The notes beneath the pieces were generated by a model. That model was not told the origin of the DNA. It searched no databases and worked only from the letters and a program-made list of their open reading frames with translations. Positions 4,041 through 43,447 of a DNA stretch of 64,000 nt are shown piece by piece (position 1 is the first letter of the stretch; the number at the start of each line of letters is the position of its first letter). Origin of the DNA: Acidimicrobiales bacterium (GTDB lineage: Bacteria > Actinomycetota > Acidimicrobiia > Acidimicrobiales > Bin134); assembly GCA_963663255.1 (NCBI GenBank), contig OY760141.1, forward strand, positions 2,253,103-2,317,102, given 5' to 3'. The position numbers and the translations under genes were made by a program.

Positions 4041-4066
4041 GCCCGCAGCCTACGCGGCCCCTGCGG

Positions 4067-4339
4067 CTAGGTGCCGTAGCGCAGCACCTCGGCCGCGTAC
4101 TGGTCGGCGAACAGCTTCAGCACCTCGCCGGGTTCAGCGTGGCGACAGCAGTCTTCTTTGGAGTAGAGCATCTCACCGTCGACTTCGACGTCGAATATGC
4201 CCGACGCACCGGTCACCAGAGTCAGATCCTCGATGATGTGCTGGTAGTTCTGAAGGAGGTCCTTGGCAGCGCTCACGGCGTGCTCGGAATAGTTTCAAGG
4301 AACTCAATAGGTGATCGTGATGCGGTGCTTTTGCGCCAT
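4067..4339 (-). CDS. SelW/SelT/SelH (Rdx) family thioredoxin-fold protein with two in-frame TGA codons at the redox motif (candidate U-x-x-U selenoprotein)
   Basis: The listed 69-aa ORF (GTG 4276) lacks the Rdx N-terminus. The same frame upstream reads ATG(4339) AQKHRITITY-TGA(4306-4304)-VP-TGA(4297-4295)-NYSEHAVSAAK..., bounded by TAG at 4351-4349. The C-terminal part (LVTGASGIFDVEVDGEMLYSK) matches the Rdx core. Confidence 0.55.
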
Positions 4340-4403
4340 GGGAGCAGGCTACCGCCAGCGTGGGGTGACTACTACCACCCCGGCTGCAACTACTGTCCAG
4401 CCC

Positions 4404-5018
4404 ATGAACCAAGCAACCGCCGAGGTCGGCGTGTTCGAGGCCATGCACACCCAGCGGGCAGTGCGCCGCTATCTGCCCGACCCGGTGCCCGATGAGCTCA
4501 TTACCAAGGTGCTGGACGCGGCCATCCGGGCCCCCAGCGCCATCAATGGCCAGTTCGCCCGCTTCGTGGTGGTCACCGATCCCGACAAGCGCCGCCGCTT
4601 GGGCGAGCTGTATCTGGATGCACAGCAGCAGTCGTACAACAACCCGGCGGCGGGAGCTGTATGGCTGCGGGGCCAGGAGGCGGAAATCGTTGAGAAGGCC
4701 GCCAAATTCGCCCGCGAGGTCGGCGACGTGCCGGTGTTCATCATCGTGTGCTCCACTCAGCGGGGAGTGAGCCACTCGGTGTATCCAGCGGTGCAAAATC
4801 TCCTAGTCGCGGCCCGCAGCCTAGGGCTGGGCACGGTGCTGACCACGCTGCACACCTTTCGGGCCGACGAGGTGCGGGCCGCTCTCGGCATTCCCGATGA
4901 CGTGCACATTGTGTGCGGCATTCCGATGGGTTGGCCCGCGGTGCCCTTTGGCCCGGTGCGCCGGCGGCCATTGTCTGAAGTTGCCTACTGGAACCAATGG
5001 GAGGGCTCTGATGAATGA
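4404..5018 (+). CDS. Nitroreductase family protein
   Basis: MHTQRAVRRYLPDPVPDELITKVLDAAIRAPSAINGQ is the nitroreductase N-terminal signature. Trimmed to ATG 4404, because the upstream extension would overlap the divergent Rdx gene. Confidence 0.8.
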   Translation: MNQATAEVGVFEAMHTQRAVRRYLPDPVPDELITKVLDAAIRAPSAINGQFARFVVVTDPDKRRRLGELYLDAQQQSYNNPAAGAVWLRGQEAEIVEKAAKFAREVGDVPVFIIVCSTQRGVSHSVYPAVQNLLVAARSLGLGTVLTTLHTFRADEVRAALGIPDDVHIVCGIPMGWPAVPFGPVRRRPLSEVAYWNQWEGSDE

Positions 5019-7636: not shown

Positions 7637-8104
7637 ATGCCTTCAATTGCAACCGACCGCTATGTCGACCGGGCCGAGATGGAGGACTTCGTCCGTCCCC
7701 GCCACCGAGGCGTCCTGCTCACTACTCGCCGAGACGGCCGCCCCCAGAGCTCGCTGGTCACCCTGGGCCTCGACACCAGCGGCCGCGTGGTGGTGTCTAG
7801 CTACCCCGAACGGGCCAAGTCGATCAACGCCAAGCGCAACCCTGCCGCCTCAATGGTGGTGATGTCCGATGAGTTCGGCGGCGAGTGGGTACAGCTCGAC
7901 GGAACCGCCGAGTGCCTCGACATGCCCGAGGCACTCGACGGCCTCGTCGAGTACTTCCGGGTCATTTCCGGCGAGCACCCCGACTGGGACGAATACCGCC
8001 AAGCCATGGCCCACCAAGACAAATGCCTCATCCGCCTAACCATCGACCAATGGGGCCCAATCTCCAAAGGCGGCTTCCCCGCCCGCCTTGTCGAGGACTC
8101 CTGA
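7637..8104 (+). CDS. PPOX-class (pyridoxamine 5'-phosphate oxidase-like) probable F420-dependent enzyme
   Basis: Typical PPOX split-barrel pattern (RHRGVLLTTRRDGRPQSSLV...VVSSYPERAKSINAKRNP...). Stop TGA at 8102-8104. Confidence 0.75.
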   Translation: MPSIATDRYVDRAEMEDFVRPRHRGVLLTTRRDGRPQSSLVTLGLDTSGRVVVSSYPERAKSINAKRNPAASMVVMSDEFGGEWVQLDGTAECLDMPEALDGLVEYFRVISGEHPDWDEYRQAMAHQDKCLIRLTIDQWGPISKGGFPARLVEDS

Positions 8105-8113
8105 GCATTGGCT

Positions 8114-9397
8114 CTACCTGGGTCGTGCTGCTCCGATCTCTCTCTGCACGATCGCCGGGTCGAGTTGAAGGGAAATGGTCTCGGGTCCTTTGAGTGGAAG
8201 CAGCGGTTTGATTCGCTGGTCAATCTCCCCTCTGAGCGATTCCACAACGGCATGGAATTCATCGCTCTTCCCCAATCGGCGGAAGAACTTTGAGGGAGTG
8301 ACAGCAGCCAGGGCGCTGATCCTTCGCTGAAAATCAAGCACATCAGCCCGGAGCAGATCTTCATTCTCCTGTAGAAGGTTGAACGAGAAGTCGGGGCGAC
8401 CATCAGCCGCTATGACGGCAGCTGCGCCTGCCGCCAGATGGGCCTTGACGGCAGCTGATCGGACAAAAGCGAGTGCGTCCGCATGGAAGTGGGTCGGATT
8501 GCCGAATGCTTCCTTTACCCCTTTGGCCCACGGTACGGCTTGCCCGTGCTTAGCCTCATACAGATCTTGGGCCTTTTCTATGTCGTCGACGAATCTCCGC
8601 ATCTGCTCTCGACGGGCAAAGTAAATGCCCTCGACCTCCCGTCGGGCGACAGCAAGCTCGGTAGCCATCTGCGCGGGAATCACCCCTTCTTGCGCAGCAC
8701 TAATGGCTTCTCGCACGAGGTAGGAAGCAGCTTGAAGCCTCCCGCTGTCGTCATCGACATGACGCTGGTAGAGCTCGTCGATCCCCGCGTTGATTTCCGA
8801 CAGGGCTGCTTCAAGTTGGTACTGCTGGACTGCTGCAGCAGCAATAGCAGTCCCCCCTGCAAGCAGTTGAGGCCATGATGCGGCCACTCGGCTTGCTCCC
8901 CTTCGGCTGAGTTGGCCGATTTCGACTACGCGCGCCGAAGCAGCATCCACTGCTATGGCGTAGTCACCGCTCATCATGCGCATTGACCCCTTGGCCAAAC
9001 CCCGCAGCGTCTCTCTAGAAAAAGTCAGCTGGTATCCCGACGAGGCCAGAGTGTCGAGCAGACCAGGAATTGTCCGAGAGAGCTCCAATACTGCGGCCGT
9101 GACCGTAGTACCGGCCTGCACTGTCTCAACTCTTGAACCAACCTGATCAGGTTCAAGGTCAATGGTGGCCAACAGACGGTCATCGGCTCGTAGTTTCAGC
9201 TGACCGCTATCGGATCGCTGCGAGCAAACCACCGGCGTAGACAGCTCGAAAGCAGCTGACTCCCCTGAGGATTCTTCATGAGCAGCCTCAATGTGGTGCT
9301 TCTCCACCGCTGGCCCAAGCCGGCGAGCGACCACCAGAACGAGCCCGATCAACACTGACAGCAATACGATCAAGACCACGGCCAGGGTTATCTCCAC
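8114..9397 (-). CDS. Hypothetical membrane-anchored protein (single N-terminal TM helix, helical Ala-rich body)
   Basis: 427-aa ORF with a hydrophobic N-terminus (MEITLAVVLIVLLSVLIGLVLVVA). Amino-acid composition looks coding, with none of the Arg/Pro/Gly bias of shadow ORFs. I recognise no family. Confidence 0.6.
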   Translation of the reverse strand: MEITLAVVLIVLLSVLIGLVLVVARRLGPAVEKHHIEAAHEESSGESAAFELSTPVVCSQRSDSGQLKLRADDRLLATIDLEPDQVGSRVETVQAGTTVTAAVLELSRTIPGLLDTLASSGYQLTFSRETLRGLAKGSMRMMSGDYAIAVDAASARVVEIGQLSRRGASRVAASWPQLLAGGTAIAAAAVQQYQLEAALSEINAGIDELYQRHVDDDSGRLQAASYLVREAISAAQEGVIPAQMATELAVARREVEGIYFARREQMRRFVDDIEKAQDLYEAKHGQAVPWAKGVKEAFGNPTHFHADALAFVRSAAVKAHLAAGAAAVIAADGRPDFSFNLLQENEDLLRADVLDFQRRISALAAVTPSKFFRRLGKSDEFHAVVESLRGEIDQRIKPLLPLKGPETISLQLDPAIVQREIGAARPR

Positions 9398-9505
9398 GAC
9401 AGGAGTATCCCCTACCTGATCGTCTTGATTCTTGTTATCACTCTTCTTCTATTTCAACGCCTAAGCACAAGGTTGCGCTGGGCCGGCCGTGTCGAATCAA
9501 TTCCA

Positions 9506-9922
9506 TCAACCGGGAATGGCTCGGGCGGCGGTTTGGTTTTCCAGTGGCCAGAACCAGCGTCGCGAGCCACCTGCCAGCAAAGCGATCCCTTTGGCCTTGC
9601 CCTTCTCGGCCTCCAAGATCAGCTCAGCCAGCGCATCGGCCATCCGCTGCTGCGGCGTGCGCCGAACTTTGGGGTCTTCGGCGTTCCACAACTCCTTCAC
9701 CTTTGCCGCCAGCATCTGCGACTTCATCGCCCCCAACCTGGACTCCGCCCGCCCAATCTCTTTCAACCGCCCCCGCAACCCCTCCTCCGACAGCCCCACA
9801 ACGTCAACACCAGGAACGCATACCCCGCCAAGGCGACAGCCACCTTCAACAGGAAATCCCCCGTCATAGCCGGAAATAGGCTCGAATCTCATGGATGTCA
9901 CTCTACCCACGACCAGTGACAC
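9506..9922 (-). pseudogene. Possible remnant of a DUF222/HNH-endonuclease-type gene
   Basis: Contains RRTPQQRMADALAELI, which resembles the DRTHQQRNADALVALI segment of the intact DUF222 HNH protein at 56440-57777. There is no HNH domain and the ORF is short. Confidence 0.3.
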
Positions 9923-10045
9923 TTACCCTCGCAAATCCCCTGCTTATCGTCCTTTGAACCGAATACATGGGGTCACGGTTCCACAAGATGGCCTGATTCC
10001 CTACCTGGATAGCTGGGGCTGTTCTGACCTCGGTAGCGTGCAGTC

Positions 10046-10633
10046 GTGGAGTTGTCGCAATTCGTTACTGACTTCGCTGACGGCATTAGAGCGGCTGACG
10101 CGGCGATGCCAATTGCCGTCAACCAGCGCTCGGGTAAGCCTTTCCGCCCGGGAATCGGCCCCCACACCGAGTCGGACACGATCCAACTTGCTCTCGGCGC
10201 ACTCTCCCCTGGACGGTTTCCCCCAGCAGTATTCGAAGCACCCTACCCAGCGTCTCCCAACCAGAAATGCGACATCCTCTTCGATGGCGATCCCGGGTGG
10301 GCAATCGAAGTCAAGATGCTGCGCATGTACGGGGACAACGGAAAACCCAACGACAACATGTTGCTTCACCTCCTCTCGCCCTACCCAAAACACCGCAGCG
10401 CCGTCACGGACTGCACAAAGCTCCGCGACTCAGGATTCCCTCAGCGTTTGGCGATAGTCATCTACGGCTACGAGAGCGAACTCTTTCCCTTGTCGCCCGC
10501 AATCTCCGCATTTGAAATTCTTGCCCGAGATCTCACGTCACTCTCCGTAAGGTGTGAGGGCCATTTCGAAGGCTTGGCTCACCCAGTCCATAGGGCCGGT
10601 TGCGTCTACGGCTGGGAAATCCAGAAGCATTAG
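10046..10633 (+). CDS. PD-(D/E)xK-type nuclease-like protein (orphan)
   Basis: CDILFDGDPGWAIEVKMLR fits a D...E-x-K nuclease core. Start is uncertain: GTG 10046 or ATG 10106, neither with a strong RBS. Confidence 0.5.
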   Translation: MELSQFVTDFADGIRAADAAMPIAVNQRSGKPFRPGIGPHTESDTIQLALGALSPGRFPPAVFEAPYPASPNQKCDILFDGDPGWAIEVKMLRMYGDNGKPNDNMLLHLLSPYPKHRSAVTDCTKLRDSGFPQRLAIVIYGYESELFPLSPAISAFEILARDLTSLSVRCEGHFEGLAHPVHRAGCVYGWEIQKH

Positions 10634-10746
10634 ACTTATCCCACTGCGATCCTCCGACCCTTGGGGCCCGTCACCTACCAATCCACCGCTTTTCTAGCTT
10701 CAATCTCCACGCGTCGTTTACCGAACCTCCCCGGCTGCGCCCGCTG

Positions 10747-10890
10747 CTATTTTCCGTCGTTCACCGTCTTCTCCCGTGGCAGCTTCTTGGCCTGCTTCGG
10801 GGTCAGGGTCTTGCCAAATGTGCCGTCGGCGCGACGACCTTGGTTGTTGCCCCGGGAAGTGGGGATCTTGCTTCGATAGTGCTTCGCCAT
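10747..10890 (-). CDS. Small basic hypothetical protein (47 aa)
   Basis: Not in the track because it is under 60 aa. ATG 10890 is preceded by gggggtgagt RBS. Translation is MAKHYRSKIPTSRGNNQGRRADGTFGKTLTPKQAKKLPREKTVNDGK, with stop TAG at 10749-10747. Confidence 0.3.
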   Translation of the reverse strand: MAKHYRSKIPTSRGNNQGRRADGTFGKTLTPKQAKKLPREKTVNDGK

Positions 10891-11040
10891 ACTCACCCCC
10901 GATCCTGTGTTGCATGTTGGCTAGTTCCGTATGTGGTTCCCTCCCAATTGAATTTCTCAGACAATTGATATGCATAATCTCCATCTTTCACATGTCAAGG
11001 CCGATTGACCCTTGAGTCGCTTGAGCCGTTGACAGTTGCA

Positions 11041-11871
11041 TCACTGCATAGCCTGCAAGTCGACACACGCCTTGTACAGGACCCGTTCGAGCTGGAGGTC
11101 TGGTGGAACTCCTTCTCTTCGTCTGTAGTCGGTGAACGAGTCGCCCTCGGGTTCGAAACAGTAGAGGCCGACGGCATCGAGGACTTGCTGTGCAGTTGAG
11201 GCCCATTTGAGGGTTCGTTCGAAATCGCTGTCACTGGTGACCCGTACTGCGATGAAGAAATAGATCTTCGGCTCAACTGTGCGGAGCCAGGTGGTGAGGT
11301 CTCCTCCGCCCGGTCCCCCAGAACGCGGCGCTGTGCCGCTCATGGCCTGGCGCCTGCTGAATTCGCCTTTCAGGTCGATGCATTTGAAGGCAAGCTCTTT
11401 GACCCGCTTGTCGATGTCGGCTGATCCGGGGCGTCCGCTCTTCTTCTGCCTCGGTGAGTTGATGTGCTTGGGTGTGCCCATCATCTTCGCTTCGAGCATG
11501 AACTGGAGGTCCCCTTCTGCGGGATAGACGCAGTCGAGATTGTGTTTGGGCACGATCAGCCCAGGTACAGGTCGACGAGATGTCAAGAGCTGAACGCCAG
11601 AGCACTGCTTGAGGAGCAGAACCAGTAGATCGTTGAAGAAGTCGCCCTTTCCGTTTTGGAGATCAGCACCTAGATCAGACTTCTCGTCGTCCGTCATGTC
11701 TGCACCGACAGAAGCGGCTATGGACGCGTCGAAGTCAGACATTGCGGTCAGAAACGATTCCTCAACCTGATTCCAGCTTGTATACCCCTCTACTTCGGCT
11801 TCGCCATACACGCTGAGAAACGGAGCGCAACGCAGGCTCGTGGCCCATCGGGCATTCGTGGGAGCGGGCAT
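11041..11871 (-). CDS. Type II restriction endonuclease (PD-(D/E)xK-like), partner of the upstream methyltransferase
   Basis: Starts 16 nt downstream of the methyltransferase stop on the same strand. LDCVYPAEGDLQFMLEAKMMG fits D...E-x-K. Confidence 0.6.
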   Translation of the reverse strand: MPAPTNARWATSLRCAPFLSVYGEAEVEGYTSWNQVEESFLTAMSDFDASIAASVGADMTDDEKSDLGADLQNGKGDFFNDLLVLLLKQCSGVQLLTSRRPVPGLIVPKHNLDCVYPAEGDLQFMLEAKMMGTPKHINSPRQKKSGRPGSADIDKRVKELAFKCIDLKGEFSRRQAMSGTAPRSGGPGGGDLTTWLRTVEPKIYFFIAVRVTSDSDFERTLKWASTAQQVLDAVGLYCFEPEGDSFTDYRRREGVPPDLQLERVLYKACVDLQAMQ

Positions 11872-11887
11872 CTATCGATTCTGCCTG

Positions 11888-13609
11888 TCAAATCCGGGAT
11901 GACTGCAAACAACGAGCTGAGAGGACCCCAAGATGGTCTGCGCCTCTGTTCAGGCCATAAGCCTCCACTGCGGCCTCAGTGGCCGCACTTCGATCCCGCT
12001 GCCTGAAAGCGTCCCGCAGGCGTTGCTGCAGCTTCAAACTGATGGAATCAGGTTCGGGCACCCGGACCTTACGTAGGTATTGCGCCTGGAACCGGAAAGT
12101 CCCTCCTCGCATTTTCACGCAATAGGCACCAACGAAGAGGTTTGCGACATCAGATAGAAGAAGCCCGCCCAGCACTTCCAGGTCCCATTTGACGGAGACC
12201 ACGTAGTACAGGTTGTGATGCGGGTAGAACCCGCCAGGGTCCAAGACGGGATGAGAGAGAGCCTTGATATCAGGCAGAAGTAGCTTGGGCCGGTCAATGA
12301 GTTCAGGGTCGACCCGGTCAATCGTCCGGTACCAGGCTCTAGGTTGCTTCTGGGCAACGTGACGAGATCGAAGCTGTTTGCTGTGTTGCGCGAAGTGCCC
12401 TGCTAGTCCCGGATAGCCAGCGAGATCTACAAGCCCATTCTCTCCCCACGGGTTGATCAGGTACTTGCCCGACCAATCAGGACGACCTGTCGCGATATCG
12501 CCTGCGGTCAGGAGCGGGAGCAGGCGATCGGTCTCCACCCCCTCGGCCTCAGCCCGGATATAGACCTGGTCGCATCCAGTGGCAACCCCAATACCAACGC
12601 GGGTCCCCGTCCGAGAATCTTCAAGTGGGGCGAATTGGGATTCGAGATCAGCCAACAATTCAAGCGTCTTCGGAGATCCTGCCGGCCACAGAGCTGGACC
12701 TTCGAACCACCTTGTCAACTCCCCCGCTTCAAAGCCTCGGGAGCTAGACAAGGCATGCTGTGGGTTACGTAGCCAATCGAGCACCAAAGAGGCCTCACGT
12801 TGATCGAAGGCAGCGTTGGCATCCACCACGCGCACAGGACCCTGGACGCCATTACGAAGGATGGCTATGGCCGGGTACGCCGACACCTCTTCTTCGAACG
12901 CGTCGACATCATGCATGACCATGACCGAGTCAACGGAGTACCGGCTCGAAACCAACCTGCGGAGGTGCGCGCCGTATTGATTCCGCATCCACCGATCCGC
13001 GCATATGTAGGCCAACTGCCCTTCAGGACCAAGCAAGGACAAGCCCTTCTCAAAGAACCCGACGTAGATGTCCGCTCGGCCTCGCATGGTTGGCCACATG
13101 GACCTATAGGCATCGTTGACTTCTTTGGGGACGTCTTCAAGACGAACATACGGCGGATTCCCTACAACAAAATCGGCAGGTTGCATGGGCTCTTCACTCA
13201 GCAAGAAATCACTCGTCACGACCCACCGCTGAGCTAAGCGCTCTGCGTTCTCGAGGGTCTCTCCCAAATCGACCAACTTAGCCACCACCGCCTTGCGTGC
13301 GATCTCCGCGTTGTGGTCAAGCAGGTCGAATCCAGCGATGGCGCCCTCTAGCTCGGACAGCCGACGACCATGAGAAGCGCATGACTCCGCAAGCCTCTCG
13401 ACAATTGGAAGAAGAAACGCCCCACAACCGCACGATGGCTCCACGATCACCTTTGCTCCCAAGTCGGCCTCGGGTACATATCCGACAAGGTCAAGCATCA
13501 GGTCAACGACCCACCGCCTAGTAAAAACCTCGCCGTACTCGCCTTGAACGCCAGCTCTGATCCTTGGCTCTTGAGGTTTCACAAGCGGCAATTGCCGGGC
13601 GTCGCTCAC
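11888..13609 (-). CDS. N6-adenine DNA methyltransferase (gamma class, Eco57I/TaqI-like with C-terminal target-recognition domain)
   Basis: SAM motif VEPSCGCGAFL followed by catalytic VGNPPYVR. GTG start at 13609. Confidence 0.9.
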   Translation of the reverse strand: MSDARQLPLVKPQEPRIRAGVQGEYGEVFTRRWVVDLMLDLVGYVPEADLGAKVIVEPSCGCGAFLLPIVERLAESCASHGRRLSELEGAIAGFDLLDHNAEIARKAVVAKLVDLGETLENAERLAQRWVVTSDFLLSEEPMQPADFVVGNPPYVRLEDVPKEVNDAYRSMWPTMRGRADIYVGFFEKGLSLLGPEGQLAYICADRWMRNQYGAHLRRLVSSRYSVDSVMVMHDVDAFEEEVSAYPAIAILRNGVQGPVRVVDANAAFDQREASLVLDWLRNPQHALSSSRGFEAGELTRWFEGPALWPAGSPKTLELLADLESQFAPLEDSRTGTRVGIGVATGCDQVYIRAEAEGVETDRLLPLLTAGDIATGRPDWSGKYLINPWGENGLVDLAGYPGLAGHFAQHSKQLRSRHVAQKQPRAWYRTIDRVDPELIDRPKLLLPDIKALSHPVLDPGGFYPHHNLYYVVSVKWDLEVLGGLLLSDVANLFVGAYCVKMRGGTFRFQAQYLRKVRVPEPDSISLKLQQRLRDAFRQRDRSAATEAAVEAYGLNRGADHLGVLSARCLQSSRI

Positions 13610-13988
13610 CCCGCACCGCCAGAGACGGGCAAATCACATTGGTGGAATCTCATACCTGTACATTAGCTATACACAGTGACAACTATGCGCCGCCCGGTAC
13701 TACCGAAGACAGGGTCTCCAGCCAACATCGAACTGAGTCGTCTCGAGCCGATCCGTGCCTTGTAGCCGCGAAACCAGCGTTCTCGGCCTGCAGCGAAGCG
13801 CTGTACGACTTGGTTTTGGGGAAAAGGTCTCTGCTGTGGTGTCCCGAGGTTGCTGCTCGAAGATCATGCCCAGCCCCTCGTACCGCCTCACCTGGGACTA
13901 CGCAATTGCTATTCCCATCGACCGTCCTCATATCCCCAGTCGTGCTCTACTTGGCAAAGCCTTCCTCTAAGCACTCGACGACATTGTT

Positions 13989-14570
13989 TCAAATTCGCTT
14001 TTGCGGGCTGGCGCTGGTTCCCGCTCTAGCTTGACCACTCGACCTAGACGCCGCAGAACGTGCAATCCTCACCAGGTGGTTCGCAAGTCCTAAGAGTTCC
14101 AGGGCGGTCTCAGGATCGTCCAAGTATCTGTGTTCATGCGCTCTTGGGTTGCGGATCCCTGTAATCACTGCAGCGAACATTTCCATGTACCCGCGCTGTT
14201 GGTCCCTTTCTGATTGGGTTTTCAGGTCGTTTAGCTTCAACACCGGATTCTTTGGCGAGAATGCTCTCTGCATTAGAGGCACACCGTCGAGTTCTGTCAG
14301 GGACGTCAGATCCTTCACAATGTTGTTCAAACACTTGTACGCCTCTCCAACTGCCAATGCGTAGTAGCCATCGAGGAACAATTTCCGACTCGTTTGACGT
14401 AGTTCGTCATCGTCGACAATTTGATCGAAGGTAGGTGGATCAAAATCGCTGGAATGCGTGGTCGGCAGTTGCATGGCAAGACCATCTGCCTTTGCTTGAT
14501 CGGCAATTGCCTTCGCAACCGATAAGCACCAACGGGAATTGTCGCCCGGTAGATCGCTACTCGCCACCAT
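13989..14570 (-). CDS. TIGR02391 / Hypoth_Ymh family protein with Rx4H (HEPN-like) motif
   Basis: FLDGYYALAVGEAYKCLNN...LMQRAF...GYMEMFAAVITGIRNPRAHEH...ALELLGLANHL matches the family pattern as I remember it. Start is uncertain: ATG 14570 overlaps the upstream stop by 14 nt, and ATG 14474 is also possible. Confidence 0.75.
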   Translation of the reverse strand: MVASSDLPGDNSRWCLSVAKAIADQAKADGLAMQLPTTHSSDFDPPTFDQIVDDDELRQTSRKLFLDGYYALAVGEAYKCLNNIVKDLTSLTELDGVPLMQRAFSPKNPVLKLNDLKTQSERDQQRGYMEMFAAVITGIRNPRAHEHRYLDDPETALELLGLANHLVRIARSAASRSSGQARAGTSASPQKRI

Positions 14571-15258
14571 AGAGATGTTCGGCCATGCTCTTGAATATCT
14601 GGTCAATCTGACCAGCAGACGCATCCGACGAAATGTGAACCTGCACGTTGATGTTGAGTGCTGGCTCTACCCTGCCGTTACCTTGCCGAGTTGCTTTCAC
14701 TTCTGATCTGTTGGCCCTTCGAGCAGTCCGGTTTGAGGCTGGCCTTTCGTCTGAACCATTCTTGCTCGTTGTTGTGGTTGGGGCTTTGGTGGCTGCACCC
14801 TCAGGATCGCCGGCAGAGAGAAGGGTGTAGAGCGCTGACATTGCTGTTGCTGTCCCCTGACCCGCTCCAGTATTTCGGCTAAACCAATTCGCTACTCCGC
14901 TTGGATCCTCTGCTGGTGAGGGAAATGCAGACCGCAGCGCATCGGGGTATACCTCTGCAAGTATGTCGGCGCACGCTTGCTTGTAGGACTCGTCGTCCCG
15001 CCAATCGAGTGCACGTTCGGTAGGTGCTCCCTCATCATCGATGAGGCCTAGGGTCCTGAGTGGCCCAATCAGATTTCCAGCCGATGCAGTCGAACTCAAC
15101 CCAAGGACCGACTGCAGGTAGTCGGCATGGACCCTATTTGGCATCGTCTGCTTGAACTTCTCCCGCAGCACCCACCAGTTCTTAGTCGGGAGGCGAGGAA
15201 ATGTTCGCTTGTCCCCTTCATCCGCCATGTCTACCTCCTTGAAAGACTTGACACTCAT
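14557..15258 (-). CDS. DUF5343-like protein (putative winged-helix N-domain, low-complexity linker, short C-domain)
   Basis: FPRLPTKNWW...YLQSVLGLSSTASAGNLIGPLRTLGLIDDEGAPTERAL resembles the DUF5343 pattern from memory. It is followed by a Thr/Ser/Arg-rich linker. Confidence 0.5.
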   Translation of the reverse strand: MSVKSFKEVDMADEGDKRTFPRLPTKNWWVLREKFKQTMPNRVHADYLQSVLGLSSTASAGNLIGPLRTLGLIDDEGAPTERALDWRDDESYKQACADILAEVYPDALRSAFPSPAEDPSGVANWFSRNTGAGQGTATAMSALYTLLSAGDPEGAATKAPTTTTSKNGSDERPASNRTARRANRSEVKATRQGNGRVEPALNINVQVHISSDASAGQIDQIFKSMAEHLYGGE

Positions 15259-15442
15259 CTGTTACGTAGCAGTAGCGGAGGAGAGCATACGGGCACATCT
15301 CGCAAATTTCAATCAAATAATTATGCTCATGTAATTCTGCGCTTGTATCAACCGAGGGATCCGACGCTCCTAACTCCCTGACCTGGGGAAACGAAGAGTG
15401 ATTGGATTGCGCAGCTAGAGGTTCGCAGTAAATGTTCAGCAG

Positions 15443-16825
15443 ATGATCGACGAACACGGTTACCCGCTCGTCGGTCGTGAGGCCAGCAGTCGTAGTGCTC
15501 GGACCCTGTCTGAAACACTATTTCACGTGACTAGGACTTCGTTGGCAGACAGGGCCGAACAAATTCTTCACCGTCACTCAAAGGGGAGGCCTCTGCACTA
15601 CAGACGTCTCACAGAGCTCGGAATCGAAGAAGGGCTTATCGTTGCTCGAGGGTCCACTCCTGAAGCCTCGCTCAATGCCTCTGTCACCCAAGAGATCAAG
15701 AAGCGGGAAGCCTCAGGAGAACCTCAACGCTTCCGCTCCCATGGCAAGGGGTTTTATTCGCTCACCCGGCCCTCAGATCCCCTTGGTGATGCGATCGAAG
15801 CCCACAATAGAGATGTTCGCGATCGCTTGCGCGAGGCGCTGGGAGACATGCACCCTAAGGCGTTTGAGCACCTAGTCGGAGTATTGCTCATTTCCTTGGG
15901 ATTCGAAGATGTCGAGGTGACTAGGTATGTAGGAGATCGTGGCATCGACTTGCGTGCGACGCTGGTGGTCGACGGCATAACCGATGTCCAGACGGCAATC
16001 CAAGCGAAACGTCATACAACTGGGTCCATCGGTGGGCCTGTCGTCCGAGAACTACGTGGAGGTCTAGGACCTCACGATCGAGGACTGATCATCACGCTCT
16101 CCCGTTTCTCCAAAGAGGCCCGCCGTGAAGCATCAGAGCCCGATAGGAGTCCTATCTCATTGGTCGATGGCGAAGGGCTGCTCGAGCTTCTCGTTCAAAA
16201 CCAAATAGGCATAAACGCCACAAGCCGCTCCATCCTTGAATTGGATGAGGGGTTCTTTACCGAGGAGGCAAGCCCGGACAGTGGAGAACTGCCGATGGCT
16301 GCAGCAAGTGGTACCCGCCTGCCTGGTGGGCCTAGTCCTAGCCAGGCGTTATCTCTCTGGCCCCTCCCAGGTGGCGCGAATGCATGGAAGGACTCACTAG
16401 ACCAAATGCTTCGGTACGTGGCCGAAGCAGCACCGACCATGAAGGAGGCAATTGCTTGGCTAATAGGCTCCTTCGAGCGGGTAGCAAGTGCCAATGCCGC
16501 TCGAGGGTACTGGCAAGTGCTACGCAGCTTGGGGCTCATTGAGACGCGAGGCGAACAAGTTGGACTCACCACGGAAGGCTCTGAGTACTTGGAGGATCCG
16601 ACCAGTGACCATTTACTCAGAATCGCAGCGAATCGAATTGTCGGAGTTGAGCAGATGATGCATTGGCTGTCTGAGCGACCTCACACATCTGGAGACCTAC
16701 TTGATCGTGCCCAGGATGAATTAGGGGTCGAGTGGGAGTCACATCAGCAGATCCTGTACCGACTCGGATGGCTGGAAATATTGGGAGCAGCGCAGAAATC
16801 AGGGGACTCCTGGTCTTCGCAGTAG
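15443..16825 (+). CDS. Mrr-type (type IV-like) restriction endonuclease with N-terminal HARE/Mrr_N wHTH and a roughly 190-aa C-terminal extension
   Basis: Mrr_cat core FEHLVGVLLISLGFEDVEVTRYVGDRGIDL...AIQAKRH...VRELRGGL...GLIITLSRFSKEA...SLVDGEGLLELL. N-terminal part is AEQILHRHSKGRPLHYRRL...GKGFYSL. Confidence 0.8.
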   Translation: MIDEHGYPLVGREASSRSARTLSETLFHVTRTSLADRAEQILHRHSKGRPLHYRRLTELGIEEGLIVARGSTPEASLNASVTQEIKKREASGEPQRFRSHGKGFYSLTRPSDPLGDAIEAHNRDVRDRLREALGDMHPKAFEHLVGVLLISLGFEDVEVTRYVGDRGIDLRATLVVDGITDVQTAIQAKRHTTGSIGGPVVRELRGGLGPHDRGLIITLSRFSKEARREASEPDRSPISLVDGEGLLELLVQNQIGINATSRSILELDEGFFTEEASPDSGELPMAAASGTRLPGGPSPSQALSLWPLPGGANAWKDSLDQMLRYVAEAAPTMKEAIAWLIGSFERVASANAARGYWQVLRSLGLIETRGEQVGLTTEGSEYLEDPTSDHLLRIAANRIVGVEQMMHWLSERPHTSGDLLDRAQDELGVEWESHQQILYRLGWLEILGAAQKSGDSWSSQ

Positions 16826-16926
16826 GAGGGCCGTGATTAATCAAGTTGGTATGGAGAATTGGCACTGCCCTGGGTTGATCAGAAATCTCTCACGTCACCA
16901 CCTCGTGGACGTGGCAGCCTCATTGC

Positions 16927-17091
16927 ATGTCCCACGAACTGGAAGAAACTAATGACAAGGACATTTTCCACGACTTTGTCTTGAGCCCAGAGGCATGGGA
17001 TGAACTTCAAGAGAAACTTGATCGGTTGCCAGTACCAAATTTCAATATCGCTGCTCTACTGACGCGGCCTTCGATCCTCGAATCCAATTGA
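16927..17091 (+). pseudogene. 3' remnant of a DUF1778 (TacA-like) antitoxin gene; no RHH part and no cognate GNAT toxin
   Basis: The 54-aa ORF MSHELEETNDKDIFHDFVLSPEAWDELQEKLDRLPVPNFNIAALLTRPSILESN matches the C-terminal half of DUF1778 antitoxins (D+xxFxLxxxxWxxFxxxLDxPxxxNxxLxxLL). An in-frame TGA lies 16 codons upstream of the ATG (16876-16878), and the intervening residues show no RHH-like sequence. Confidence 0.45.
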
Positions 17092-41403: not shown

Positions 41404-42641
41404 GACAACTCCCCTAACACCGCCCCAGCGGTGTCTACCACTCGGTCTACGTCGGCAGTGGTGAACGTGAACGGCGGGTAGATTCCCAAGTGGTCGGCTT
41501 GGGCTCGCACCAACACCCCGGCCGACTGTATGCGCCGCTGGGCTTCGGCTACCAAGGGTGCCGGGCTGTCGCCGGCCAGCTCTACCGCGGCCAGCATCCC
41601 CTCTCCCCGTACCTCGGCCACCACCGGCAAAGAGCCCAGCGTGCCGATTCGCTCCTGAAGATACCGACCGGTCAGGCGGCTGTGGTCAATCAGTCCCTCC
41701 CGCTCGATGATTTCGATCACCTTCAGCCCGGCGACACAGGCCGCGGGGTGCCCGCTATAGGTGTAGCCGTGCATCAGCTCGATAGAGCCTTCGGAGTCGA
41801 CGAACACATCGTGGACTCGATTGCCGGCAATCGCCGCGCCCATGGGAACGTAGGCCGAGGTCAGTCCTTTTGCTGCGGTCATGATGTCGGGAACCACCCC
41901 ATAGCGGTGGCCGCCGAACCAGTGGCCCAGCCGTCCGAATCCGCAAACCACCTCGTCCAGCACCAGAAGTACATCTTGGCGGTCGCACATCGCCCTGACT
42001 TGGCGCAAATAGTCCTCCGGGGGCGGGTAGACGCCTCCGGCGGCCTGCACGGGCTCCATGATTACGGCGGCGATTGTGCTCGGATCCCGGTAGGCCAGCT
42101 CCCGCTCAAGGGCGTCGATGTCGTGGGCCGGAACCTGGGTGCAGCCTTCCAGCAGAGGGCCGAACCCCGCCCGGTTCTCGGTGAGGCCACCCACCGATAT
42201 CCCACCGAAGTTCATGCCGTGGTAGCCCCGGTGCAGCGACACGAATCCGGTCTTGGACCCCTGGTCGACCCGGCGCCAGTACCCTCGGGCCATCTTCATG
42301 GCCGTCTCCACCGCCTCTGAGCCGGAGTTGGTGAAGAAGACGTGGTTCAGATCGCCCGGTGTGCGGTCGGCGACAGCCTCGGCCAGTTCCCGGGCCCGAG
42401 GATGGCTGTACCCGAAGAGGCAGTGGTACTCCAGTGTGCGGAGCTGCTCGGCCACCGCATCGGCGATCTCGGTTCGGCCGTGTCCCAAGATCACACAGGC
42501 CACTCCTCCGGCGGTAGCGTCGAGCAGCCTGATTCCATCGTCGGTCGTCACGTAGTTGCCGTCCCCGGCCATTACCACCGGGGGCCGGCTTCCGCCCGCC
42601 GAGGTGAACGGCATCCACAGGGCACCGGTTGCGCCGCTCAC
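41400..42641 (-). CDS. Class III (omega-type) PLP aminotransferase
   Basis: FFTNSGSEAVETAMK, LVLDEVVCGFGRLG, and PLP Lys in DIMTAAKGLTS. Confidence 0.9.
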   Translation of the reverse strand: MSGATGALWMPFTSAGGSRPPVVMAGDGNYVTTDDGIRLLDATAGGVACVILGHGRTEIADAVAEQLRTLEYHCLFGYSHPRARELAEAVADRTPGDLNHVFFTNSGSEAVETAMKMARGYWRRVDQGSKTGFVSLHRGYHGMNFGGISVGGLTENRAGFGPLLEGCTQVPAHDIDALERELAYRDPSTIAAVIMEPVQAAGGVYPPPEDYLRQVRAMCDRQDVLLVLDEVVCGFGRLGHWFGGHRYGVVPDIMTAAKGLTSAYVPMGAAIAGNRVHDVFVDSEGSIELMHGYTYSGHPAACVAGLKVIEIIEREGLIDHSRLTGRYLQERIGTLGSLPVVAEVRGEGMLAAVELAGDSPAPLVAEAQRRIQSAGVLVRAQADHLGIYPPFTFTTADVDRVVDTAGAVLGELS

Positions 42642-43447
42642 AATCCGCTCCGAGAATTCCGCCAGGCCAGCAGGGATTCCAGCTCATCGATCTGGTAGTC
42701 GGGGCCCGACCGGACCAGGATGAGGTGCTCGGCCCCGGCGGCTGCGTAGTCGTCGTAGGTCGCATCGCTAGCGGTTTCAAATAGCGCTACCGTCCTCTCC
42801 ACTTGAGACGGATCGCGCTCGGCCCGCTCGCACCAGGCGTCCAGCACTTTGTTGAGGTGGGCGATCTCGTCTGGGGTGCCCCAGCCATTCCAGGCGTCGG
42901 CCAGCCGGGCGCACACGTCCAAGGTCATCCGCTCCCCCATCCCGCCGACCAATATGGGCAGCGGGCCTGCCGGTCCAGGACGGAGTTGTCCCAATCGACG
43001 GCGGATGCGGTGGATGGCGACCTCCATCTCCCGTATTCGATCGGCATCGCCCGACATGGCATACCCATAGGAGTGGTAGTCACGCTCCAGCCAGCCCGAT
43101 CCCAGGCCGAGCACCACCCGGCCCCCCGATGCGTGGTCCACGGTGCGAGCCATGTCGGCCAGCAGATCGGGGTTGCGGAACCCCGTACAGGTGACCAGCG
43201 GGCCGATCAGGGCTGTCTTGGTGACCGACGCCATGGCGGCCAGCGTGGTCCAGCATTCAAAGGCGGAGCCCTCGGGATCGCCGTCAATGGGAAAGAAGTG
43301 GTCAAAGGTCCAGATGCTGTCGGCTCCGGCCCCATCGGCGTACTGCCAGGCGGCCACCATGTCGCTCCAGCTCACATGGTTTGGTCGAATCTGGACGCCC
43401 ACCCGCGGCACCATCTCAGGCCCCTTCATGGCCATCTGTCCCTTCAT
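42638..43447 (-). CDS. LLM-class (luciferase-like) probable F420-dependent oxidoreductase
   Basis: Luciferase-like TIM-barrel pattern (GADSIWTFDHF..., GRVVLGLGSGW). The exact start among several Met residues is uncertain. Confidence 0.75.
   Translation of the reverse strand: MKGQMAMKGPEMVPRVGVQIRPNHVSWSDMVAAWQYADGAGADSIWTFDHFFPIDGDPEGSAFECWTTLAAMASVTKTALIGPLVTCTGFRNPDLLADMARTVDHASGGRVVLGLGSGWLERDYHSYGYAMSGDADRIREMEVAIHRIRRRLGQLRPGPAGPLPILVGGMGERMTLDVCARLADAWNGWGTPDEIAHLNKVLDAWCERAERDPSQVERTVALFETASDATYDDYAAAGAEHLILVRSGPDYQIDELESLLAWRNSRSGL

Follow-up and report, generated by a model that had tools for sequence, protein, structure and literature searches.

Can a bacterium use two UGA codons, only 9 nt apart, to place selenocysteine (Sec, U) at both redox positions of one small protein, or are two such codons the mark of a gene in decay? 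The question is raised by a gene on the minus strand (4339-4067) of a 64-kb stretch of contig OY760141.1, from an Acidimicrobiales bacterium. This whole stretch of 64,000 nt is called the window here, and positions are counted from its first letter. The gene is of the Rdx/SelW-like kind, in which the redox motif is CxxC or CxxU (C being cysteine), and its only two in-frame stops fall on the two redox residues. A preliminary description of the locus had argued against decay and proposed a bacterial selenoprotein of the Rdx/SelW-like type in which each redox position has a Sec codon. This proposal is now supported by the conservation of the codons in a clade, by selection on the gene, and by the fit of a downstream hairpin to the model of the bacterial Sec insertion sequence (SECIS). 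We think it probable that both UGAs are read as Sec by means of a single hairpin within the open reading frame (ORF), so that a UxxU Rdx protein would result whose redox cycle passes through a diselenide.

Retranslation of the minus strand from 4360 to 4067 gives RWR-stop-PAPMAQKHRITITY-stop-VP-stop-NYSEHAVSAAK...RYGT-stop. The first of these stops is an in-frame TAG at 4351-4349, upstream of the start codon ATG at 4339-4337 (both on the minus strand). From this ATG, the frame reads MAQKHRITITY-TGA-VP-TGA-NYSEHAVSAAKDLLQNYQHIIEDLTLVTGASGIFDVEVDGEMLYSKEDCCRHAEPGEVLKLFADQYAAEVLRYGT-TAG, in which the long segment opens with NYSEHAVSAAK and closes with RYGT, so that the full-length Rdx/SelW-like ORF (4067..4339, minus strand) comprises 90 codons and the stop TAG at 4069-4067. 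The first TGA (TGA1 in the DNA, UGA1 in the RNA) is codon 12, at 4304..4306 on the minus strand, and takes the first Cys position of the CxxC/CxxU motif, where it is a clade-specific candidate for Sec. The second (TGA2, UGA2) is codon 15, at 4295..4297 on the same strand, which is the canonical Sec position of the SelW-like CxxU motif. Codons 12-15 are thus TGA-GTT-CCT-TGA and align with CxxC at the sequence level. The mechanical ORF call recognizes only 69 aa (4067..4276) from a GTG start. On retranslation, the positions reported earlier for the ATG, both TGAs, the upstream TAG and the 69-aa ORF from GTG 4276 all proved correct.

Elsewhere in the window TGA is an ordinary stop, as had been stated. 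It terminates 23 of the 38 called genes, which makes it the commonest stop, and the TGA at 8102-8104 is the normal end of a complete F420-PPOX-class gene. By our own calculation, two random stops among 90 codons would hit both redox positions about once in 4005 cases. The earlier view that the placement of the two stops goes beyond chance is borne out by this figure, by the alignment with CxxC and by the occurrence of the same pattern in 24 other genomes.

For the family searches, Cys was written at both TGAs of the window protein. In this form, the protein matches the Pfam family Rdx (PF10262) with 57.9 bits over profile positions 1-71 of 74 (cutoff 22.6), compared to 30.6 bits for the 69-aa fragment alone, and it lies above the cutoff of TIGR02174 (CXXU_selWTH) with 43.6 bits vs 34.2. 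The gain in the Rdx score once the N-terminus is restored agrees with the previous remark that the called ORF is missing the first strand and the redox motif. In alignments, the two TGAs fall on the CxxC of Rdx proteins whose structures are solved (IEYCTQC of 3DEX and IRYCTQC of 2FA8), and likewise on the CVPC of P0036, a natural full-length Cys homologue. The AlphaFold model of P0036 (predicted local distance difference test, pLDDT, 82.5) has a strand at 13-19, the motif C20-x-x-C23 and a helix at 26-43, which is the order beta1-CxxC-alpha1. The model matches five bacterial SelW-related crystal structures, including 2OBK, 2FA8 and 3DEX, with template modelling (TM) scores of 0.74-0.78 and root-mean-square deviations of 1.2-1.7 Å. 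On its score and motif position, and on the fold predicted for P0036, the window gene is assigned to the Rdx family, which takes in SelT, SelW and SelH.

The protein homologue search returned 202 matches, nearly all of them called at exactly 69 aa, which indicates that the stop met by gene callers is shared by many genomes. In a scan that took one genome per species, 513 Acidimicrobiia genomes had a relative. The best 80 of these loci were kept (named L001 and so on), and together with the window they form a comparison set of 81 sequences. When the frame is read upstream of the called start, all 81 sequences have TGA as the second redox codon, and the first is TGA in 25 (the window and 24 species), TGC in 55 and TGT in one. 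Relatives therefore have either Cys or TGA at the first position and TGA at the second. The 56 sequences outside the UxxU group are of the CxxU form, which the preliminary description had rightly taken to be established for SelW-like proteins and which is the form listed in reviews.

A tree for which the redox codon was masked places the 25 UxxU sequences in a single clade inside the CxxU ones. The closest outgroups, four CxxU genomes (L006, L015, L019 and L031), include three that are labelled Candidatus Poriferisocius. The ancestral state in the Acidimicrobiia was probably C-V-P-U, and the second Sec codon would have come from a single TGC-to-TGA change in the ancestor of the UxxU clade, which is sponge-associated.

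In the UxxU clade, 24 of the 25 nucleotide sequences are distinct, and amino-acid identity goes down to 80%. Over the whole gene, divergence at codon positions 1, 2 and 3 is 0.078, 0.057 and 0.19 (up to 0.34 at position 3), and the corresponding values for the 13 codons that precede or separate the TGAs are 0.029, 0.035 and 0.107. The start codon is kept in 25 of 25, there are no indels or frameshifts before or between the TGAs, and the 5' leader diverges freely. The low divergence at positions 1 and 2, along with the kept start, argues that the N-terminal segment is translated and that the gene has been under selection since the first TGA. In this clade, purifying selection acts both before and after the UGA codons. 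Degraded or frameshifted orthologues, which had been named as a sign of a pseudogene, are thus not what is seen in the clade, in which the reading frame is kept. A pattern scan of metagenomes found two further UxxU copies, and only those two, on JGI/NCBI contigs, and two more contigs encode a protein identical to the Rdx protein of the window.

Reading a UGA as Sec in bacteria involves a SECIS just downstream in the coding sequence, and a SECIS-like hairpin lies at 4260..4288 on the minus strand, recognized by its fold, covariation, codon freezing and agreement with the bacterial SECIS (bSECIS) model. The hairpin in the window has a lower stem UCC/GGA, an upper stem GCACGC/GCG(C)UGC with a bulged C (4266-4283) and an apical loop CGUGA (4273-4277). 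The stem-loop starts 11 nt past UGA2, and UGA2 and UGA1 lie 17 and 26 nt, respectively, from its apical loop. The preliminary description had also placed a hairpin after the second UGA, in the register CGAGCAC-GCC-GUGAGCG. A conserved hairpin is indeed found there, but the register as drawn is no better than shuffles and was rejected, and the overlapping hairpin with the CGUGA loop is the one that is supported.

Across the alignment a lower stem, UCS/SGA, underlies the upper stem, which in most CxxU genes has 6 bp in a 17-nt stem-loop. In the UxxU clade and its CxxU sister L019, the upper stem consists of 3+3 bp with a bulged C in an 18-nt stem-loop, with the same hairpin core. Since L019 has this core and is CxxU, no remodelling of the SECIS was needed for the second UGA. 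In the ungapped 81-sequence alignment, the hairpin register is paired in 83% of cells, compared to 22-56% when the partner strand is slid. Pair 21-45 covaries among CG, GC and GU, and pairs 24-40 and 27-37 change from CG to UA. The codons for Ala-Val-Ser in the loop are frozen (GCC in 81/81, GTG in 81/81 and AGC in 73/74), in contrast to the free variation at other four-fold sites. For the UxxU clade taken by itself, divergence at third positions is 0.049 in the codons of the hairpin and 0.218 in the rest of the gene, and the ten least-diverged blocks of 10 codons, as judged at synonymous sites, all lie in codons 9-27. That these synonymous sites are the most conserved ones within the UxxU clade itself argues that recoding is still in use in its genomes.

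In the bSECIS model (PMC13188914), the loop is 3-9 nt, the upper stem is 4-16 bp, a G stands in the first two loop positions, the distance from UGA to loop is 16-37 nt and the minimum free energy (MFE) is at most -7.5 kcal/mol. In the window hairpin, the second loop nucleotide is a G and the next is U, the upper stem has 6 bp and a single bulge, and the MFE is -9.4. All 25 UxxU sequences fall within the limits of the model for both UGAs; the energy limit on its own holds in 25/25 UxxU and 53/56 CxxU sequences. Folding of the minus-strand RNA therefore gives a stem-loop that suits both codons and is conserved downstream of them, in line with the selenoprotein first proposed. No match to Rfam was found in the window at gathering thresholds, and none is expected from the literature, in which bacterial SECIS elements are said to be poorly represented in that database.

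The annotated GTG start at 4276 sits within the apical loop of this hairpin. The same is seen in public gene calls for more than 500 Acidimicrobiia species, which almost uniformly give the 69-aa fragment and take as its start a GTG or ATG that belongs to the apical loop of the SECIS. With the start placed there, the active-site motif is absent from the annotated proteins.

The sequence of events that we favor is as follows. Translation would start at ATG 4339 and yield a 90-residue Rdx/SelW-like thiol-selenol oxidoreductase with the motif Y-U-V-P-U. The two UGAs would be recoded with one hairpin (4260-4288), both distances to it being within 16-37 nt. From the C-V-P-U ancestor, one TGC-to-TGA change would have added the second Sec while the SECIS stayed unchanged. 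The product would cycle between a diselenol and an intramolecular diselenide, which clade-specific Cys residues in a loop of the protein could possibly resolve. That the residue at UGA1 is Sec and not another one is an inference, the formation of the intramolecular diselenide is proposed by analogy with the precedent of SelL, and a functional link of the Rdx protein to the cytochrome P450 and nitroreductase encoded next to it may be supposed from the gene neighborhood.

The loop residues form a vicinal Cys-Cys pair at codons 64-65 (TGC TGT; 4145..4150, minus strand) in an SK..CC.HA loop, and this additional thiol site is found in the sponge clade alone. One or two Cys (as CC, CM, DC or TCC in the SK....HA loop) are present in 29 of 29 sponge-clade sequences, that is, in the 25 UxxU sequences and the four CxxU sisters. 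The other 52 homologues have TGRH in this loop, and 0/52 have an extra Cys. Since the four CxxU sisters have it too, the loop Cys is older than the second Sec. These residues could serve as resolving thiols for a selenenylsulfide or a diselenide.

The cytochrome P450 gene (2778..4040, minus strand; Pfam p450) is CYP125/CYP142/EryF-like. It lies 26 nt past the end of the Rdx gene on the same strand, as the ORF calls confirm. Its nearest entries in the PDB are an ancestral reconstruction of CYP125, EryF and CYP142. CYP125 and CYP142 are steroid C26-monooxygenases, and this likeness fits the beta-oxidation-type genes that surround the locus. On the other side, a nitroreductase-family gene (4407..5018, plus strand; Pfam Nitroreductase, 92.5 bits) is divergent from the Rdx gene, with the starts 67 nt apart. 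The P450 and the nitroreductase flank the Rdx gene in all 24 of the UxxU genome loci, the nitroreductase at 87-96% identity. They were detected in none of the 56 CxxU loci, save for one weak nitroreductase-like match (34% identity) in L054. The four sister CxxU loci keep the outer synteny (thiolase, amidohydrolases and enoyl-CoA hydratase), and the P450 and nitroreductase are absent from them. The insertion of these two genes and the Cys-to-Sec change thus appear to map to the same branch of the tree. The associations of the P450, the nitroreductase and the loop Cys with the UxxU motif are suggestive rather than statistical, because all of them map to one or two branches. The redox partnership with the P450 that the preliminary description had suggested is a possibility, but the conserved adjacency does not turn the Rdx protein into a classical partner of the ferredoxin or flavodoxin type; it lacks a one-electron cofactor with which to reduce the haem, has no iron-sulfur or flavin domain and matches Rdx only.

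A conserved TANNNT box is found exactly 6 nt 5' of the Rdx ATG (TAGCCT; window 4346-4351, minus strand). The GTG of the P450 likewise has such a box 6 nt upstream (about 4047-4052, minus strand; TAGGCT, or TACGCT in relatives), and neither start has a Shine-Dalgarno sequence. The boxes and the lack of a Shine-Dalgarno sequence suggest that the two genes are expressed as leaderless transcripts from separate promoters and not as a simple operon. A scan with the sigma-70 consensus found no promoter.

Several results weigh against the decoding of both UGAs as Sec. The folding energy of the hairpin in a single sequence is no better than that of shuffles, with unremarkable z-scores. The hairpin core is near-invariant, so the covariation rests on few pairs, and RNAalifold on all 81 sequences kept no more than an invariant core of 3 bp, the fuller structure being drawn from the fold, the paired register and the fit to the bSECIS model. 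In L011 (NZ_OZ244791.1; L011:2968-2973), one of the 25 in the UxxU clade, TAA stands in place of the Tyr codon TAT right before UGA1 and would end the protein at residue 10. Otherwise the gene in L011 is intact, and the TAA may reflect a recent inactivation in that species or a sequencing error. A second selenoprotein gene was not found in the window by a scan for TGA-interrupted genes based on GC content at third codon positions (GC3), which gave no candidate in the context of a redox motif; the filter is weak and missed the Rdx gene too.

The machinery for Sec is the main point of difficulty, as no sel gene or tRNA-Sec was found in the 64-kb window or in the fetched loci. ARAGORN detected no tRNA in the window, nor did it find a tRNA-Sec in 60 loci; about 45 window genes were annotated with Pfam, and none was selA, selB or selD; and motif searches for the pyridoxal phosphate (PLP) site of SelA, the SelD motifs and the G-domain of SelB returned nothing from the window and the fetched loci. 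In addition, the table of COG counts for one sponge symbiont genome, bin134, has SelD=1, SelA=0 and SelB=0 (Slaby et al. 2017, PMC5649159 Table S4). This bin is MPNQ01, from which the UxxU locus L003 comes; it consists of 224 contigs, and its completeness is about 90%. The lack of SelA and SelB may be due to the incompleteness of a metagenome-assembled genome or to divergent genes, and we treat it as a caution, not as a refutation. The genes selA and selB are usually adjacent. The other Acidimicrobiia bin in that table, bin76, has SelA, SelB and SelD (PMC5649159 Table S4). In another order of the class, the Actinomarinales, all 84 complete Actinomarina genomes have selA, selB, selC and selD, and SelA and SelB have been described as enriched in symbionts of Aplysina sponges.

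A different account of the same data is that the protein is full-length and UGA1 is read as Cys, either by a SECIS-dependent tRNA-ReC (selC*) or by a Cys-charged tRNA-Sec under selenium scarcity; the motif would then be CxxU or a mixture of Cys and Sec. This possibility was raised in the 2026 study of Group 4 hydrogenases, in which tRNA-ReC-like tRNAs were seen in about 56% of the UXXU genomes vs 2.3%, a significant difference. The SECIS is also the same in the CxxU sister L019 and the UxxU clade, and by the sequence alone UGA1 could stand for either residue. However, TGC and TGT are only one substitution away and would be more efficient codons for Cys, yet TGA1 has been kept in 25 of 25 sequences despite differences of up to 34% at third positions. 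Around the locus, the search of the window and the fetched loci turned up no tRNA at all. Cys at UGA1 is, for these reasons, an unlikely solution.

The second Sec, the CYP125/142-like P450, the nitroreductase and the loop Cys could also be taken together as one module, in which a diselenide Rdx protein is dedicated to a P450 system for the oxidation of sterols or lipids in sponge symbionts, for instance to protect or re-reduce the P450. Separately, UGAs 9 nt apart might be decoded in a lineage for which the published genome bin134 lists neither SelA nor SelB, and this would mean a non-canonical route of recoding. Both ideas are speculative, and we would put little weight on them.

Far less probable is the termination of translation at UGA1, in which case the gene would be inactive or decaying in the clade, or would encode an 11-residue peptide, with at most the 69-aa fragment made from GTG 4276 without beta1 and the redox motif. 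The public annotations that call the 69-aa ORF, the additional TAA in L011 and the COG table of bin134 without SelA and SelB would all suit such a gene. The pattern of change in the clade does not: the codons before and between the TGAs are under purifying selection, with the start kept in 25/25 and no frameshift, and divergence at position 3 is far above that at positions 1 and 2 across the gene. TGA2, the VP spacer and the SECIS do not vary in the clade, and no synonymous sites in the gene are better conserved than those of codons 9-27; such constancy would not be maintained if translation stopped at codon 12. The GTG at 4276 is itself inside the hairpin loop, and a fragment that begins there loses half of the Rdx score. 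Lastly, an artefact of sequencing or assembly, or a private mutation of one genome, is refuted by the presence of TGA-GTY-CCT-TGA in 24 genomes, each representing a species, that come from different projects and were sequenced with different technologies, by the two JGI/NCBI metagenome contigs and the two contigs with an identical protein, and by the 24 distinct nucleotide sequences among 25.

How new would a bacterial Rdx protein with two Sec residues be? The preliminary description had limited the Sec-x-x-Sec motif to the eukaryotic SelL, which is wrong. Bacterial UxxU proteins have been published for the Prx-like/SelL family, a putative mercuric reductase, the FmdB family and the Group 4 [NiFeSe] hydrogenases, and eukaryotic UxxU forms of SELENOW are known from amphioxus and Ostreococcus lucimarinus. 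As the motif has been published in these other families, the novelty is smaller than was supposed. Reviews of 2022 and 2026 give the SELENOW-like family (PF10262) as CxxU, with one Sec. Our literature search yielded no account of bacterial Rdx proteins with UxxU, nor of selenoproteins from these sponge Acidimicrobiia. The UxxU Rdx protein in bacteria is most likely a previously unlisted, two-Sec version of a common SelW-like selenoprotein and not a new category.

With the bacterial SelW-like CxxU proteins (PF10262, TIGR02174), the window gene shares the family, the fold, the position of the motif, the Sec position at the second redox residue and a SECIS in the ORF just downstream. It differs from them in that the first Cys is also TGA and is conserved as such in a clade, and in its extra loop Cys and its P450/nitroreductase neighborhood. 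The eukaryotic UxxU SELENOW proteins belong to the same family and have undergone the same Cys-to-Sec change at the first position of the motif. Their SECIS, however, is in the 3' untranslated region and poses no problem of spacing, whereas here one SECIS within the ORF has to serve UGAs 9 nt apart. Given that the UxxU clade is nested within bacterial CxxU forms, its origin would be independent of the eukaryotic one.

SelL, or Prx-like 2, also has UxxU in a thioredoxin-like fold, with marine bacterial members and a reported diselenide. Shchedrina et al. are said to have described, in 2007, a single SECIS in the ORF of SelL that is positioned for both UGAs. The family is peroxiredoxin-like (PF00578/PF04592-like), however, and has no sequence relationship to Rdx. 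The UXXU Group 4 hydrogenases arose from CXXC/CXXU ancestors, their SECIS architecture is the same in the CXXU and UXXU forms, and one SECIS has been proposed for both UGAs. In these enzymes, which are large, the motif is a ligand of Ni, and no clear stepwise path from CXXU to UXXU was seen; in the Rdx clade, by contrast, this step is phylogenetically explicit.

The clade thus offers a natural and phylogenetically resolved transition from CxxU to UxxU with an unchanged SECIS. It bears on whether one bacterial SECIS can serve two closely spaced UGAs, and on what an Rdx protein would gain from a diselenide over a selenenylsulfide. That the UxxU gene strictly occurs together with a steroid-type P450 and a nitroreductase is among the few contextual clues to the function of bacterial SelW-like proteins.

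Some other features of the window were also noted. Neighbors that look linked to F420 or flavin include an F420-dependent PPOX-class oxidoreductase (TIGR03618; 7637-8104, plus strand) and a luciferase-like monooxygenase (42638-43447, minus strand), and the nitroreductase at 4407-5018 (plus strand) has a weak FbiB C-terminal/BluB-like similarity. Together, they hint at an F420-based redox context around the locus. A 9-kb island of low GC content, 54-59% compared to 64% in its flanks, extends over about 8100-17000 of the window. Encoded on it are a type II restriction enzyme paired with a methyltransferase (11041-13609), a type IV restriction enzyme of the Mrr type (15443-16825) and two further proteins, one HEPN/Hypoth_Ymh and one DUF5343 (PDC-M34A). 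The island looks like an acquired defence island, in agreement with the enrichment of defence functions reported in sponge symbionts.

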